Assembly: GCA_964646345.1 (NCBI GenBank)
Contig: CAZYDU010000001.1
Coordinates: 12,583 to 76,582, forward strand
Reading direction: 5' to 3'
Length of the DNA stretch: 64,000 bases
Source: an uncultured Lachnospiraceae bacterium
GTDB lineage: Bacteria; Bacillota; Clostridia; Christensenellales; UBA1242
Positions 5,922 to 13,805 of the stretch are shown here, piece by piece. The notes under the pieces were generated by a model, which was not told the origin of the DNA, did not search any database, and was given only the letters and a program-made list of their open reading frames with translations. A program made the translations under genes and the position numbers. Each line of letters starts with the position of its first letter. Position 1 is the first letter of the stretch.

Positions 5922-6557
5922 TTATTCGTCAACTTCTTCTTCAGCTTCTTGAAGTTCAATACTTGGTTTTGAGAGTTGTTTTATTGCACTTACTGTATAA
6001 TTTACGCAAGAAACAACAGATAAAACAACACCAATAATCATAAGTGATAGACCAAATACTTGAACATAACGTAAGAAGTCGCTATTTGTAACTTTTGTTA
6101 AACCGATATATAAAATCAAAACCATTGAAGCTAAATCCAAGAAAAACGATTTAACTTTGCCGAAAATATCGGCAGCGATAACAACATTATTATTAGCAGC
6201 AACCATTCTGATACCACTAATTAAAATGTCACGAAGAACAACAATTAAAAGCATTAAAACAGCAAGCCAATTTGCAGTAACAGAAATTTTGCCAAATAAG
6301 ACCAAAATCATTGCTGTTGTTGTGATAAATTTATCAGCAATTTGGTCCATAAATTTGCCAAAATCAGTGATTAAATTGTATTTTCTAGCAATGTGACCAT
6401 CTAAAAAGTCAGTTAAACATGCTAAAACATAAATACCAAGAGCAATAAACACACCGATACCCTTTGAAATTGGTAATAAAAACATTAAAACCATGAGTGG
6501 TGTGCAGAAAATTCTTACCATTGTAAGAGCGTTTGGAACATTCATTTTAAATTTCAT
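5922..6557 (-). CDS. pgsA: CDP-diacylglycerol--glycerol-3-phosphate 3-phosphatidyltransferase
   Basis: CDP-alcohol phosphatidyltransferase motif [27 protein letters not shown]. Start set at the ATG (MKFKMNVPN) 9 nt after AAGGAGA. Position before recA matches Bacillus. Confidence 0.85.
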
Positions 6558-7953
6558 TTTGTACATCTCCTTGTAAATCATAACCCTTAACTTTTGTTAT
6601 TTTCACTTTATAAATTTTCCCAATTTCAAGCGGAACTTTAGACTTGAAAAATACTAAAGTATCAGCTTCAGGAGTTTGATATTGACTTCTTCCAAAGAAT
6701 AATTGTTTTTCATAGTCAATACCTTCATAGCAAACATCTAAAGTTTTTCCAACAAAACTTTTATTGATTTCATTTGCAATCTTTTGCTGAATACGCATAA
6801 GTTTTAAAAGCCTGCGGGTTTTTATATCATCAGGGATTTGGTCAACGAAGTTCGCAGCAGTTGTGTCAGCTTCTTTTGAGTAAGCGAAAAATCCAACATG
6901 CATGAGCTTGTATTTTTGAATAAACTCAACAAGTTCATCAAAATCCTTATCAGTCTCCCCAGGAAATCCTACCATATAAGTCGTTCTAATTGCAATAAAT
7001 TCAGGTGCATTTTTGATTTTTTCTAGCAAATTAACTATATCTTTTTGGCAAGTTTTTCTATTCATTCGTTTCAAAACTTTATCGGAAACATGTTGAAGCG
7101 GAATGTCAATATATTTGCAAACCTTAGGATTATTGATGATTTCATTTAAAAGTTCATCTGAGAGTTTTTCAGGATAACAATACAAAAGTCGAATCCATTT
7201 TAAGTCTTCAATCGTTGAAAGTTTCTTTATAAGCTTAACAATTTCAGGCTTGCCGGTTTTGTCTTCGCCGTATCTTGAAATATCCTGGGCAACTAAGATA
7301 AGTTCACTTGCACCATTTTCAACAAGTTTCACTGCTTCTTCATACAAATTATCAATATCCATTGACCTGTAACGCCCGCGAATAAACGGAATCGTACAGA
7401 ATGTGCAAAAGTTATCACAGCCGTCCGCAATTTTTAAATATGCATAGTGCATTGGAGTTGTGACAACTCTATTTTTTATGAAAGGCAAACTTTTCGTGCT
7501 TCCAACTTTCACAATTTTTTTACTGCTATCAAAAGATGCTTTCAAAATGTTTGCAATCTCTGGATAACTATCAATACCCAAAACAATATCTATTTCAGGA
7601 AATTCATTTAATATATTTGAAGACCACCTTTGTGGCAAACAACCGGTAACAACCAATCTCTTGCAACGATATTTCGGATTTTTTCTATATTGAACCATCT
7701 CAGCAATAGCTTCCATTGATTCATTTCTTGCTGTCTCAATAAAACCACAAGTATTAATGATAATTATATCCGCATTTGATGCATCGGCAGTGAATTTGTA
7801 TCCAGCTTCAAATAAATAGGTCAGCATAATTTCAGAATCAACTCTATTTTTATCGCAACCCAAAGAAATTACCCCAACATTCATAGGTCTTGTTATGGTA
7901 GCATTCGTTTCTTTTGTATTTGTTTTTTGTTTAGCTTTTGTAGTTTCAGCCAT
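6547..7953 (-). CDS. rimO: ribosomal protein S12 methylthiotransferase RimO (MiaB-family radical SAM)
   Basis: ISLGCDKNRVDSE N-terminal MTTase motif, radical SAM CDNFCTFC, C-terminal TRAM-like domain. Confidence 0.85.
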   Translation of the reverse strand: MAETTKAKQKTNTKETNATITRPMNVGVISLGCDKNRVDSEIMLTYLFEAGYKFTADASNADIIIINTCGFIETARNESMEAIAEMVQYRKNPKYRCKRLVVTGCLPQRWSSNILNEFPEIDIVLGIDSYPEIANILKASFDSSKKIVKVGSTKSLPFIKNRVVTTPMHYAYLKIADGCDNFCTFCTIPFIRGRYRSMDIDNLYEEAVKLVENGASELILVAQDISRYGEDKTGKPEIVKLIKKLSTIEDLKWIRLLYCYPEKLSDELLNEIINNPKVCKYIDIPLQHVSDKVLKRMNRKTCQKDIVNLLEKIKNAPEFIAIRTTYMVGFPGETDKDFDELVEFIQKYKLMHVGFFAYSKEADTTAANFVDQIPDDIKTRRLLKLMRIQQKIANEINKSFVGKTLDVCYEGIDYEKQLFFGRSQYQTPEADTLVFFKSKVPLEIGKIYKVKITKVKGYDLQGDVQNEI

Positions 7954-7959
7954 TTGATA

Positions 7960-9633
7960 TTAGTCCTCCAAATCCTTAATTATAAGGTCAAGTTCGGTGT
8001 CGTTAACCATTGCGGATTTTATGTGTGTAATCTTTCCATTTGAAATATTATAATAAAGTGCATCACTTTCTTCAGGCAAATCTTCAGCACCCTTTTCGCC
8101 AATAGTAAATCTTGAATCTTCATCACTTTTAAAGCTGATTCTTGAAGATAAGTTATAGTTAACTTGATTTGATTCAATAGGCAACTTTGCGGTTACCACA
8201 CAATAAACTCCTGCAATTCTTCCAAATTTTAATATTTGATAAAGACAAGTGTTAATTTTGTCTTTATCGGTCGCCTGAGACGCTGATGTATAGTTATTAA
8301 ACACAACATTTATATAAGGCATAGTAGAAAATCCACCAGAAACTGCACCTTCATTATAGCCTTCGACAGTCTTTACACCAAGTTCCGCCATTTTGTCGTA
8401 TCTATTATCTATTTCCTTTGCAATCTCAATCAAAGTATCAGCAATTTCTTTATTTGTTTTTGCAATACGATTGAAATAAAGGTAAGAACTTTTATTGTAA
8501 ACTTCAAAGGAACTATCAATATTAGAATCCAAAAGCACAAAATTAACATCATGATAACTATTTTTTAAGCATAAGCTCAAAATCATGGAATTTAAAAATG
8601 AATTTGTAATAAGATCGTTTTTACCAAAAACTGCAAGATTAAAATGTTCTTTGAAATTGCCAAAAATCGTTTCAGCCTTTTCATTTTTTCCCATAATATA
8701 TGAGAGTTTATCAGTATTCTTAAACTCGTCAGTGGTTATTTCATTGATAAATTTAAAATCTTCAATGATTTGATATTTTGAACTTATAATTTTCTTTTCT
8801 TCAGCTTCCGCTTGTTTTTCCTTTTCAGCATTTTCACTTTCTTTAAGCTCGTTTTGCAAGATTTCTTTAAGTTGATTAAAGTCAGTGATAATATCCAAAT
8901 CTTCGTCTGATGTTTGTGGATTAGCTGTTTCTTTGCTCGAAACATTTTCTAAAACTTTGTTAGATTCTTCAGGTTCAGCAACGGATTCTTCCAATTCGTC
9001 AACAGAAGTTTCTTTAGCATTATCCAAATCTTCAGATTCTTCGGAAATATTTTCAGTTTGTTCTAATGTTTCTTCAGAATCTTCCATAATCTCAACTTTT
9101 TCATCTTCATCAAATTTTGGTTCAATGTCAATACTGGTATTAAAATCATTATTAAAATCGTCTTCCGAATTTGTTTCTTCAGTGTCTTTGATTTCGTTAT
9201 TTTCAACATCGCTGGTATCAAATTCTTCAGTGTCCATATCTTCTAGCAATTCATTAAGCAAATCATCTAATTCATGTTTGTTTTTTGATTCTGGTGGTGG
9301 AGTTGGTTTTTCAGGTTCTGAAGCAGGCTGAGCCGATGGAACTGTGTCATCTTTGACTTCAAAAGCCGAGAAAGCACTAAATTTAGATAAGTTTTCTTCA
9401 CTTAATCCTTCATCTTCTTGAACTTTATCAGAACTAGCTTCGCTGGAATTTAATTCATTTACTTCAGATTCTGCACTATCTGAAGCATTTGAATTTTCCA
9501 ACTGAATTTCTTCTCTATTTGGATTGTAGTCATTATACATATTTGGGTCAGATTCAACGCCACGTTCTCTATCAAGTTCTTCCCTAGCTTTTTTTAATTC
9601 TTCTAAATCAACACCACTTACATTTTTATCCAA
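7960..9633 (-). CDS. acidic protein with a degenerate (Walker A/B-less) FtsK/SpoIIIE-like C-terminal domain
   Basis: TTG start 7 nt after GAGGA, 15 nt downstream of the ftsK stop. The N-terminal ~300 aa are D/E/S-rich. The C-terminal ~230 aa are collinear with the FtsK motor, but GSTGSGKS is replaced by FGKNDLITNS and IVDELAE by VVFNNYTS. Confidence 0.6.
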   Translation of the reverse strand: MDKNVSGVDLEELKKAREELDRERGVESDPNMYNDYNPNREEIQLENSNASDSAESEVNELNSSEASSDKVQEDEGLSEENLSKFSAFSAFEVKDDTVPSAQPASEPEKPTPPPESKNKHELDDLLNELLEDMDTEEFDTSDVENNEIKDTEETNSEDDFNNDFNTSIDIEPKFDEDEKVEIMEDSEETLEQTENISEESEDLDNAKETSVDELEESVAEPEESNKVLENVSSKETANPQTSDEDLDIITDFNQLKEILQNELKESENAEKEKQAEAEEKKIISSKYQIIEDFKFINEITTDEFKNTDKLSYIMGKNEKAETIFGNFKEHFNLAVFGKNDLITNSFLNSMILSLCLKNSYHDVNFVLLDSNIDSSFEVYNKSSYLYFNRIAKTNKEIADTLIEIAKEIDNRYDKMAELGVKTVEGYNEGAVSGGFSTMPYINVVFNNYTSASQATDKDKINTCLYQILKFGRIAGVYCVVTAKLPIESNQVNYNLSSRISFKSDEDSRFTIGEKGAEDLPEESDALYYNISNGKITHIKSAMVNDTELDLIIKDLED

Positions 9634-9648
9634 AATCTTATCCTCACT

Positions 9649-12462
9649 TTATGAATTATAATCTTCACCAAAAATTTCTTTAAATTTATCGGGAGTAATT
9701 AAAATTTGTCTTTGTTTAGCACCAGTTGCAGGTGCAATGTATCCTTTTTCTTCCATTTGGTCAACAATTCTAGCAGCTCTTGAATAACCTATTGAAAGTC
9801 TACGTTGCAAGTAACTTACAGAAGCCGAGCCATTTAACATAACTGACTTAACTGCAATTTTAAAGTATTCGTCAACTCTATTGTTTGCAGGAGCTGAATC
9901 AACAAATTGGTCGCCTGAACCCGCATCTCCAGACACTTGTGGGTCTGATGTGAATGCTTTTTCCGCTTCTTCATCAAAGACAGCAACGTTGTTTCGTTTT
10001 ACAAAATCAACAACAGCTTTTATTTCGTCATCTGATGCATAAGCACCTTGAAGTCTAGGCATAGCCGAAGTATCGGTTAATTGCATGAGCATATCGCCTT
10101 GATTTAAGAGTTTTTCAGCACCAACAGTATCAAGCATGGTTTTTGAGTCAAATGAAGACTGGAGACGGAAAGCAAATCTTGATGGAACGTTGTTTTTAAT
10201 GACACCAGTAATGATATTTACTGAAGGTCTTTGAACAGCTAAAACCAAGTGCATACCGCACGCACGAGCAAGTTGTGTGATTCTTTGAATAGCTGGGTCT
10301 GCTTCCTTTTTGTAGTTAATCATAATTTCTGCAAGCTCATCGACAATAATAACAATATATGGGAAATGCTCGAATTGACCAGATTTTACAAGCTCCGACT
10401 TGTTGTAATCTTCAATGTTTTTGTAGTTGGCTCTACCCATGATTTCAAAACGTCTATCCATTTCTTTAACACACCACTTGAGTGCACTTACCGCTTTTTC
10501 AGTGCCAAGCACAACCTTTGGTGCAACAAGATGCGGAAGACCATTATAAAACCCAAATTCAACTTGTTTGGGGTCAATCATAACAAGTCTTAAATCTTCT
10601 GGGCCATACTTGTAAATCAAACTTAACACTAGGTTATGAATGAAAACAGATTTACCTGAACCGGTTGAACCAGCAATCAAAACGTGAACCATTTTTGCTA
10701 AGCTTTTAACAATGATTTGTCCTGAAATATCTTTTCCGATAGCGATTGGAAGTGGACCTTTTGCGTTTTGAAACTCAGGAGATTCCAAAAGCTCTCTTTC
10801 AAATACACTTGTGAATGTATCATTTTCAAGTTCAATACCAACATAACTACTTCCAGGAATTGGAGCTTGAATTGTAACAGATTTGGCAGCCAAAGCTCTT
10901 TGAATGTCTTGTTCATAGTTTGGAATTTTCTTGACAGAAACACCATAAGGCACTGACAATTCATATCTAGTAATTTTTGGACCACGAACTATATTTACAA
11001 CTTTTGCAGGCACATTGAATGATTCCAAAACATCTTCAAGTTGCTTAGATTTTCTAGCTTGTTCTTCCGAATAATTCCCAGTATCTTTAACAGGACGAGC
11101 AAGCAGTGAAAGTGGTGGCGGATTGTATCTCACACCAATCATTGATGTTTGTTTTCCATTTGGCACAACCGGTTTTTCAACCTTTTCAACTTTTGGAGAT
11201 GTTGGAATACCCGTCAAAATTCCTTTGTTTCTATCTTCAATATTGTCAATATTATTTTCATAAGGATTTGAAACCGGCGGATTGATATTTTCACCAAATG
11301 GTTCTGGAGAAACTGGTTTAATATTTAAAATATCGTCTTTTGGCTCATTGAAAACAGGCTCGAATGGCGTAATATCATCAGGTATTAAATTTTCAACATC
11401 ATCTTCTTCTTTTGTTAAAATATCTTTAACATTATCGGCAATTTTTATATCATCTGGCGACTCGCCATTACCCCACAAATCATTAGAACCCTTTGGTGTT
11501 TTTGGAATTTCAACCGTTTCAAAACCTGTCAAATCAGTACCAAAATTTGAATAGTTGTTTGGTTGTTCATCTAATTCGTATTCAGTCTGTTTAACTTCAT
11601 TTGTGTTTTGCCCAAAATTACCAAAAGTTCCAGAAATAAATTCTTGTCTAGATTTTGTTAAGGTCTCGTTATCATAAGTTTTGAAAGGATTATTGTATGA
11701 TTCTTCAGACTCAGGATAATCATTCCCATTAACTGGTTCTTCATATTCATCAACAATATCGTCTGGAGAATAAACCGGAGCTTCTTTGTATTCAGTTTGC
11801 GAATAATTAATATCTTCTTCAGTAGCTTCAATAGTACCAAGTTCATCTGAATATTTATTATACCCATAACTTGGCATACCATTTTTGGCATCTTTATCAC
11901 TATTATTCACTTTCTCACGTTGCTTTTTTGTTGATAATTTTTTTATGTTTTCGTCAAACTTGCCATAGTTTTCATAATCAACAATCAAACCAACTGAAAT
12001 TGTAAACAATATAACAAAAGCAACTATCGCACCCATAGCACCAAGCAACATTGCAAATAATCCAACAAAAATTGAACCAAATGAACCGACTAGAGTAATT
12101 TTATCGGTGTATGAAAATTTTAAATAAGTTTTTAATGATGCAAATGACACAACCTTGTCGAGTTGTTTATATGTTGAAATTGCTTGGATAACAAACAATA
12201 AACTTACCAGAATTAAGATAAAATAAACCGTTGATTTTTTATTTCTTTTGTATTTTAAACCTAAGAACTTTGCAAGCTCAATCAAACTTAAAATCAAAAA
12301 CAATGGATAAGTCATGATACCAAATGTGCAAACAATCCACTTGCCTATTGGCAACACACTTTTTAAGCATGCAAAAATAAAAGCAAGCGAAAAAACTATC
12401 AAGCAAATCATGCTTAATATTTTTCGTTTTTGCAAATTGATATTATTAGTTTTGTTTTCCAA
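9649..12462 (-). CDS. ftsK: DNA translocase FtsK/SpoIIIE
   Basis: N-terminal TM helices, linker, Walker A GSTGSGKS, Walker B IVDELAE, gamma winged helix SYLQRRLSIGYSRAARIVDQMEEKG. Confidence 0.93.
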   Translation of the reverse strand: MENKTNNINLQKRKILSMICLIVFSLAFIFACLKSVLPIGKWIVCTFGIMTYPLFLILSLIELAKFLGLKYKRNKKSTVYFILILVSLLFVIQAISTYKQLDKVVSFASLKTYLKFSYTDKITLVGSFGSIFVGLFAMLLGAMGAIVAFVILFTISVGLIVDYENYGKFDENIKKLSTKKQREKVNNSDKDAKNGMPSYGYNKYSDELGTIEATEEDINYSQTEYKEAPVYSPDDIVDEYEEPVNGNDYPESEESYNNPFKTYDNETLTKSRQEFISGTFGNFGQNTNEVKQTEYELDEQPNNYSNFGTDLTGFETVEIPKTPKGSNDLWGNGESPDDIKIADNVKDILTKEEDDVENLIPDDITPFEPVFNEPKDDILNIKPVSPEPFGENINPPVSNPYENNIDNIEDRNKGILTGIPTSPKVEKVEKPVVPNGKQTSMIGVRYNPPPLSLLARPVKDTGNYSEEQARKSKQLEDVLESFNVPAKVVNIVRGPKITRYELSVPYGVSVKKIPNYEQDIQRALAAKSVTIQAPIPGSSYVGIELENDTFTSVFERELLESPEFQNAKGPLPIAIGKDISGQIIVKSLAKMVHVLIAGSTGSGKSVFIHNLVLSLIYKYGPEDLRLVMIDPKQVEFGFYNGLPHLVAPKVVLGTEKAVSALKWCVKEMDRRFEIMGRANYKNIEDYNKSELVKSGQFEHFPYIVIIVDELAEIMINYKKEADPAIQRITQLARACGMHLVLAVQRPSVNIITGVIKNNVPSRFAFRLQSSFDSKTMLDTVGAEKLLNQGDMLMQLTDTSAMPRLQGAYASDDEIKAVVDFVKRNNVAVFDEEAEKAFTSDPQVSGDAGSGDQFVDSAPANNRVDEYFKIAVKSVMLNGSASVSYLQRRLSIGYSRAARIVDQMEEKGYIAPATGAKQRQILITPDKFKEIFGEDYNS

Positions 12463-13736: not shown

Positions 13737-13776
13737 ATAATTCTCCAAGATAAATTATTACATATACATTATATAA

Positions 13777-13805
13777 CAAAAAAATCCGTCATCAAAACGG
13801 ATTTT
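13777..13805 (-). terminator. rho-independent terminator after the deacetylase gene
   Basis: Stem AAATCCGT (13782-13789) / ACGGATTT (13797-13804), with a T7 run on the minus strand. Confidence 0.65.

Follow-up and report, generated by a model that had tools for sequence, protein, structure and literature searches.

Immediately downstream of ftsK in the genome of an uncultured Lachnospiraceae bacterium lies an open reading frame (ORF) whose product, for which we use the label psFtsK (ORF 7960-9633, minus strand), is a soluble FtsK-motor paralog, non-catalytic but with the beta (RecA-like) fold retained. Positions refer to the window, by which we mean the whole 64,000-nucleotide stretch of contig CAZYDU010000001.1 that was analyzed; the features of the locus are collected in Table 1. 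A preliminary description of this DNA, made from the sequence alone, had reported an ORF of 557 aa, started by TTG 15 nt past the ftsK stop codon (TAA, 9649-9651) and preceded by GAGGA in the gap, and all of these particulars were borne out on the sequence; the gap reads AGTGAGGATAAGATT. Past the psFtsK stop codon the gene order is miaB-like, then pgsA, recA, and rny. We regard the start call as correct because the TTG and its upstream ribosome-binding site are kept in six homologous loci, one of which encodes a protein just 31% identical, and because M[DE]K[NK]V is the N-terminal start common to all homologues.

Table 1. Features of the psFtsK locus (positions are those of the window; residue numbers are those of psFtsK)
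Feature	Position	Strand	Remarks
psFtsK gene	7960..9633	-	557 aa; TTG start, TAA stop; from ORF and upstream sequence
Ribosome-binding site GAGGA	9641..9645	-	within the 15-nt ftsK-psFtsK gap, eight bases before the TTG
Canonical ftsK, 937 aa	9649..12462	-	transmembrane segments, linker, alpha, beta, and gamma domains; Walker A, Walker B, and arginine finger intact
MiaB/RimO-type methylthiotransferase (radical S-adenosylmethionine) gene	6547..7953	-	6 nt downstream of psFtsK
N-terminal module, residues 1-40: MDKNVSGVDLEELKKAREELDRERGVESDPNMYNDYNPNR	9514..9633	-	predicted helix 10-24; E12 and R17 invariant
Acidic, mostly disordered region, residues 41-250	8884..9513	-	predicted local distance difference test score (pLDDT) below 50 outside the motifs
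Short motif NLSKFSAFSAFEV, residues 80-93	9355..9396	-	short predicted helix at 79-89
Amphipathic helix, residues 118-135 (HELDDLLNELLEDMDTEE)	9229..9282	-	conserved; pLDDT about 79
Long helix into the beta-like domain, residues 252-284	8782..8880	-	pLDDT 83-86; start TDFNQLKEILQ (TDxxQLxEILQ) conserved
FtsK beta-domain (RecA-like) homologue, residues 281-557	7963..8793	-	pLDDT about 90, isoelectric point (pI) 4.8; profile, structure, and selection evidence
Degenerate Walker A position GKNDLITN, residues 337-344	8602..8625	-	variable in the family; modelled as an extension of helix alpha1
Walker B position FNNY, residues 445-448	8290..8301	-	DE replaced by NN
GRIAG, residues 471-475	8209..8223	-	R472 aligned with the FtsK arginine finger (R620 of Pseudomonas aeruginosa FtsK)

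Profile, pairwise, and structural comparisons agree that psFtsK is a member of the FtsK/SpoIIIE family by homology and that its C-terminal domain has the RecA-like fold of the FtsK beta domain. The family named in the preliminary description, PF01580, was the sole one found in a Pfam search (E 2.4e-11; score 44 bits, cut-off 24), and in the 1.04-Mb genome just ftsK and psFtsK pass that cut-off. BLASTP aligns psFtsK with the window's own FtsK at 23% identity over 260 aa (E 1e-18); the solved Escherichia coli and P. aeruginosa FtsK motors match it in phmmer at E 1e-15 and 3e-11, respectively; and hhalign, set to compare 42 family members with 21 FtsKs, returns a probability of 99.8% (E 8e-29), with residues 281-557 collinear with FtsK 534-823. 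The alignment begins at the last strand of the alpha domain and covers the beta domain to its end, where psFtsK also stops. The parallel with the FtsK motor drawn in the preliminary description therefore stands as homology, but its extent does not: the homologous stretch is about 275 aa rather than about 230, and it is a beta domain only, not alpha/beta. When an AlphaFold2 model, built on the 42-sequence alignment, was compared with the Protein Data Bank (PDB) by Foldseek, the confidently modelled beta-like domain (pLDDT about 90) found FtsK motors in all of the top 17 places (E 1e-21 to 1e-17; root-mean-square deviation [rmsd] 1.7-2.3 Å), with EccC, TcpA, and EssC ranked next. As had been read from the sequence earlier, transmembrane helices and a gamma domain are absent from psFtsK: the maximum 19-residue Kyte-Doolittle (KD19) hydropathy is 1.2, against 2.9 in FtsK, and Pfam finds no match to the gamma winged helix-turn-helix domain (PF09397). 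There is likewise no Pfam match in psFtsK to the alpha domain (PF17854). The pI of the domain is 4.8, compared with 8.3 for the FtsK motor.

The catalytic apparatus of this domain is gone. In P. aeruginosa FtsK (PaFtsK), the catalytic glutamate is E596 and the arginine finger is R620; T630-Q631 form the sensor, and loop II grips DNA through R632 (bioRxiv 10.1101/2022.01.03.474797); we transferred this numbering to psFtsK by counting through the alignment with solved FtsKs, and took a census of the motifs in 84 homologue clusters (90% identity) aligned with FtsKs. Where FtsK has the Walker A sequence GSTGSGKS, psFtsK has GKNDLITN; the lysine is present in 0 of the 84 clusters, and nowhere in their alignment is there a P-loop that is shifted but intact. 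The model turns the former P-loop into an N-terminal extension of helix alpha1, helical from residue 340. At the Walker B site, asparagine stands in place of the aspartate in 82 clusters and in place of the glutamate in 83, so that the loss of both Walker motifs claimed from the single sequence is seen across the whole set. The sensor glutamine is missing as well, the TQRP motif (PaFtsK T630, Q631, R632) reading AKLP, and the loop II arginine is kept in a single cluster of the 84, with a three-residue deletion after it. Because the P-loop, the Walker B acids, the sensor glutamine, and the DNA-gripping arginine have all gone, psFtsK should, to judge from its sequence, neither bind or hydrolyze ATP nor translocate DNA.

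One element escaped this loss, and it went unnoticed in the preliminary description. R472, the residue at the position of the trans-acting arginine finger, is invariant (84/84 clusters), as are G471 and G475 beside it; R411-Y412, N427, R498, and the GAE motif are likewise retained relative to FtsK. Among the features expected of an FtsK translocase, psFtsK lacks Walker A and B, the sensor and loop II, the alpha and gamma domains, and the membrane anchor, and has the arginine finger. It therefore retains the element that acts on a neighbor's ATP site. The strongest conservation in the family falls elsewhere, in a nearly invariant block specific to psFtsK and unlike FtsK (FEVYNKSSYxxFNRIAKTNKEI, residues 376-397), and 27 columns are invariant among homologues down to 28% identity. 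With homology and motif loss both seen, the view that this is a catalytically degenerate FtsK paralog is upheld.

The N-terminal half is of another kind. Residues 41-250 contain 34% D/E and 6% K/R, carry a net charge of -60, and are predicted to be disordered, and across the family the corresponding region spans 145-510 aa, with 25-40% D/E and a net charge of -60 to about -94. The N-terminus is thus polyacidic, as it had been called, although not uniformly so: the alignment and the AlphaFold2 model together mark five conserved islands, including, besides those in Table 1, a D-x-EP-x-FD island at about residues 168-175. The motif at residues 80-93 has the family consensus [DN][FL]x[VK]YDxFxxFE[VI]. 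The N-terminal module was found in no protein without a dead FtsK domain, and neither this module nor the FEV motif nor the helix at 118-135 has a second copy in the genome. A pattern scan of FtsK linkers, the printed output of which was index-offset, gave no match to the YDxFxxFEV-type motif; an FSAFEV look-alike that we noticed by eye in the linker of the window's FtsK was not recovered in other FtsK linkers, and we have discarded the idea of a linker motif common to FtsK. The short conserved motifs of the tail look like partner-binding peptides, as far as their sequences can suggest. FtsK's own linker is acidic too (21% D/E), so an acidic tail could be no more than what is usual for linkers of this lineage.

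Selection has acted very differently on the two halves. From a comparison with one 98%-identical strain (synonymous divergence [dS] about 0.15), the ratio of non-synonymous to synonymous change (omega) is 0.054 for the psFtsK domain, 0 for the N-terminal module, in which there is no non-synonymous change, and 0.50 for the acidic region; the values for the neighboring FtsK, MiaB, and RecA are 0.054, 0.03, and 0.006, respectively. The beta-like domain is under strong purifying selection, and constraint on the acidic tail is relaxed apart from the short motifs. Between species, the rate of change in the psFtsK domain is two to three times that in the FtsK motor, and for some species pairs the two differ by up to about 20-fold in tree distance.

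Every copy found is intact, in 84 clusters at 90% identity and, from an exhaustive search with a profile hidden Markov model, about 65 representatives at 50%; one homologue is annotated as a "hypothetical protein." The gene is present in seven of seven genomes of the window's own genus, at 38-54% identity, and in none of 194 genomes from 57 other genera of the family, which as a rule gave just an FtsK-level match; other families of the order gave nothing beyond such matches. The arrangement had been called non-standard, and this survey, which confines psFtsK to one genus, bears that out. In nine of ten loci from other genera miaB directly follows ftsK, and in every locus that carries psFtsK the gene sits between the two. 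Could it nevertheless be a functionless remnant of a partial ftsK duplication, now in decay? Its catalytic motifs are gone, it is restricted to a single genus, and it evolves faster between species than FtsK does, all of which speak for such a remnant. Against it stand the intact reading frames in all those clusters, the omega of 0.054 in the domain, the 27 columns that stay invariant even where identity falls to 28%, and the conserved start codon and ribosome-binding site. We consider this explanation extremely improbable, the selection data having effectively refuted it; psFtsK is a functional gene.

As to where the gene came from, the psFtsK sequences are monophyletic (100/100), the branch that leads to them measuring about 4.4 substitutions per site, and the topology within the clade mirrors the FtsK tree of the same genus. 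In approximately unbiased (AU) tests, a position as sister to the genus's own FtsK (p 0.50) and placement with distant FtsKs (p 0.29) are both accepted, the branch being too long to separate them. Most simply, the gene would have arisen when part of ftsK was duplicated in place in the genus's ancestor. The FtsK motors of the genus themselves sit on a well-supported stem of their own relative to other genera of the family (length 0.34, 100/100), which could reflect adaptation to psFtsK or merely phylogeny. In some relatives, stand-alone genes for the FtsK gamma domain lie between ftsK and psFtsK: genes of 94 and 194 aa with three gamma domains in all in one locus (L004:7093-7982) and a single 82-aa gene in another (L007:7719-7967). 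Identity of these copies to the FtsK gamma domain is 36-57%, and no such gene is present in the window. The 3′ flank of ftsK seems prone to partial duplications.

The charge of the tail invites a further proposal, a stronger form of the DNA-mimic idea in the preliminary description: that psFtsK is an inhibitor in which the acidic tail mimics DNA and fills the DNA channel or gamma domain of FtsK, with the beta-like domain serving as an anchor, so that FtsK is held off DNA until division. The strongly negative charge recurs across the family despite the differing lengths of the tail, the psFtsK domain is acidic, in contrast to the basic FtsK motor, and the extra gamma-domain genes in the gap of relatives suggest that this locus experiments with accessory parts of FtsK. 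Nevertheless, the tail is poorly constrained in both sequence and length, with an omega of 0.5 and a threefold variation in length; the case is at bottom one of charge, and the FtsK linker is acidic as well. A DNA-mimic role for the tail is pure speculation, and we think the inhibitor model as a whole improbable.

The arrangement of the genes indicates that psFtsK is encoded together with ftsK. A consensus scan of the minus strand, which is all that our statements about terminators rest on, found no terminator-like match between ftsK and psFtsK or between psFtsK and the miaB-like gene; from the hairpin upstream of the M16 peptidase gene to the end of rny, the sole match lies inside ftsK, at 10265-10249. 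On this evidence the genes have the look of a single long operon. These results, along with gaps of 15 and 6 nt and a synteny kept in every locus examined, accord with the earlier view that psFtsK is encoded with ftsK. Upstream of the M16 peptidase gene, at 13768-13805 (minus strand), a promoter-like site, TTGATG-16-TATAAT, comes straight after a terminator-like hairpin and likely marks the start of a long operon comprising M16, ftsK, psFtsK, miaB, pgsA, and recA. In the window ftsK and psFtsK also share a reading frame (9634-9651), the TAA and five codons lying between them, and read-through of the stop would yield an FtsK-psFtsK fusion; this sharing of a frame is not conserved, since the gap at one homologous locus (L044) measures 16 nt. 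At the other end of the gene, the GGAGGA ribosome-binding site of the miaB-like gene sits in the final psFtsK codons, L-E-D (TTGGAGGAC; window 7963-7971), an overlap that may partly account for the conserved acidic C-terminus of the family (LED, LEE, or IEE).

Several known systems resemble psFtsK in part. With the FtsK/SpoIIIE motor (PDB 2IUS, 2IUU, and 6T8B) it has in common the RecA-like beta fold, at an rmsd of about 2 Å with about 275 residues collinear, together with the arginine finger, the RY pair, N427, R498, and the GAE motif; it differs in being acidic rather than basic, in having a disordered acidic N-terminal region with motifs of its own, and in lacking Walker A/B, the sensor glutamine, the loop II arginine, and the transmembrane, alpha, and gamma parts. 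SftA of Bacillus subtilis is a soluble, active FtsK-family translocase with intact Walker motifs and gamma domain, encoded away from spoIIIE/ftsK. Like psFtsK it is a second FtsK-family protein without transmembrane segments in a Firmicute; psFtsK, unlike SftA, is catalytically dead and has no gamma domain. Dead subunits have been placed in FtsK rings by design: hexamers engineered with Walker mutations tolerate two of them and translocate at normal speed, but can then no longer displace roadblocks (Crozat et al. 2010, PMC2868570). Those hexamers are assembled from artificial covalent trimers of full alpha-beta-gamma subunits, and no natural dead subunit figures in that work (PMC2868570).

Of the cases described so far, those closest to psFtsK are the degenerate D2, D3, and DUF domains of EccC/EssC in type VII secretion systems, which are likewise FtsK-family RecA-like domains with catalytic motifs lost, and to which regulatory or structural roles are ascribed (PMC11154593). 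The crystal structure of the EccC5 DUF has its P-loop folded as an extended alpha1 helix (PMC11154593), the same substitution that appears in the AlphaFold2 model of psFtsK. The EccC/EssC domains are fused to an active D1, whereas psFtsK is a separate protein, and the EccC5 DUF lacks the arginine finger (PMC11154593) that psFtsK keeps. Nor does psFtsK match such a protein as a whole by the NCBIfam equivalog models for EssC/EccC, against which it scores 50 bits (cut-off 778) and 37 bits (cut-off 509), with a single domain and no tandem ATPases. In a literature search, no dead FtsK paralog that stands alone came to light, though its coverage was incomplete and it is no proof of novelty.

Other candidates for a wider family did not hold up as relatives. 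P0198, a degenerate FtsK-like protein of 322 aa that scores above ordinary FtsKs on the psFtsK profile, is a singleton in an unrelated context, between genes for a GDSL lipase and a LysR regulator and away from ftsK (L046:2871-3839). Together with P0226 and P0265 it belongs among short (287-372 aa), beta-only metagenome proteins that have degenerate Walker A/B motifs and keep a QxAR-type arginine finger; dead FtsK domains may arise repeatedly. High-scoring giant proteins were also set aside, since Walker A is intact in them and their scores are sums over several domains. Four giant proteins of the representative library (P0185, P0193, P0195, and P0214; 2,800-3,075 aa) have 4-8 FtsK-like stretches and 7-10 Walker A motifs, far exceeding the three or four domains of EssC/EccC.

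What, then, does psFtsK do? We think it most likely a dead subunit, cap, or regulator of FtsK, and put the probability of this reading, which is drawn largely from sequence, at roughly 45%. The beta-like domain would bind an FtsK beta domain on the face that carries the ATP site, serving there as a dead subunit or cap, and would thereby modulate ring assembly, ATPase activity, or processivity. The four or five conserved short motifs of the acidic tail most likely serve as contacts for other partners or as a tether that positions the protein, and the conserved TTG start fits a sub-stoichiometric, regulatory dose. Action on FtsK is suggested because an arginine finger is useful only beside a subunit that binds ATP and because FtsK is the sole other FtsK-family protein in the genome; the role of dead subunit is favored because the engineered hexamers tolerate dead subunits, with altered properties. 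The preliminary description had supposed that psFtsK joins or caps FtsK hexamers, and this model gains from an arginine finger that is invariant while every cis-acting element has been lost. Strict linkage to ftsK in all loci and the mirrored trees support a connection with FtsK, and the low pI of the domain, set against that of the FtsK motor, supports a loss of DNA binding.

Several observations nonetheless weigh against such a role: (i) the alpha domain, which contributes to contacts in the FtsK ring, is missing from psFtsK; (ii) the invariant arginine could owe its conservation to a structural salt bridge and not to trans-activation; (iii) the block at residues 376-397 may be a newly evolved surface for binding something other than FtsK; (iv) phylogeny cannot place the origin of psFtsK in the neighboring ftsK; and (v) the absence of psFtsK from 57 other genera (194 genomes) means that their FtsK has no general requirement for it.

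The first and third of these points speak for a different possibility, that psFtsK is a scaffold independent of FtsK, whose dead domain self-oligomerizes or binds another partner by a new surface and whose tail recruits division or segregation proteins, adjacency to ftsK being a mark of origin by duplication. The pattern scan, in which the several conserved short motifs were not found in FtsK linkers, and the very long branch that separates psFtsK from FtsK are in keeping with a scaffold, as is the precedent of the D2, D3, and DUF domains of EccC/EssC as substrate-binding or structural modules. Yet an arginine finger invariant in 84 of 84 clusters has no obvious use in a ring that is unable to bind ATP, and the locus encodes no alternative candidate for the partner. 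On balance we hold an FtsK-independent scaffold to be possible but doubtful.

If psFtsK does act on FtsK as a dead subunit or regulator, a more specific version can be imagined, in which it is a natural dead subunit of a ring translocase. Its arginine finger would complete or cap one FtsK ATP site and so gate ring closure, firing order, or the clearance of roadblocks, and the tail motifs would couple the ring to the division machinery or compete with DNA. In this detailed form the proposal is speculative and, we think, rather unlikely to be right in full.

The reach of these findings is limited, in that psFtsK is confined to one uncultured genus of gut Clostridia. FtsK is, however, a model ring translocase, and the coordination of its subunits has so far been probed mainly by engineered dead subunits. 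A naturally selected dead paralog with just the trans-activating residue would, if our reading is true, be a ready-made probe of the same question, showing what an arginine-finger donor that has no ATP site of its own does to ring assembly, firing order, and force. It would, moreover, illustrate how a pseudoenzyme can evolve through local duplication, and would do so in a strongly reduced genome of about 1 Mb, where the retention of an extra 1.7-kb gene implies a real benefit.

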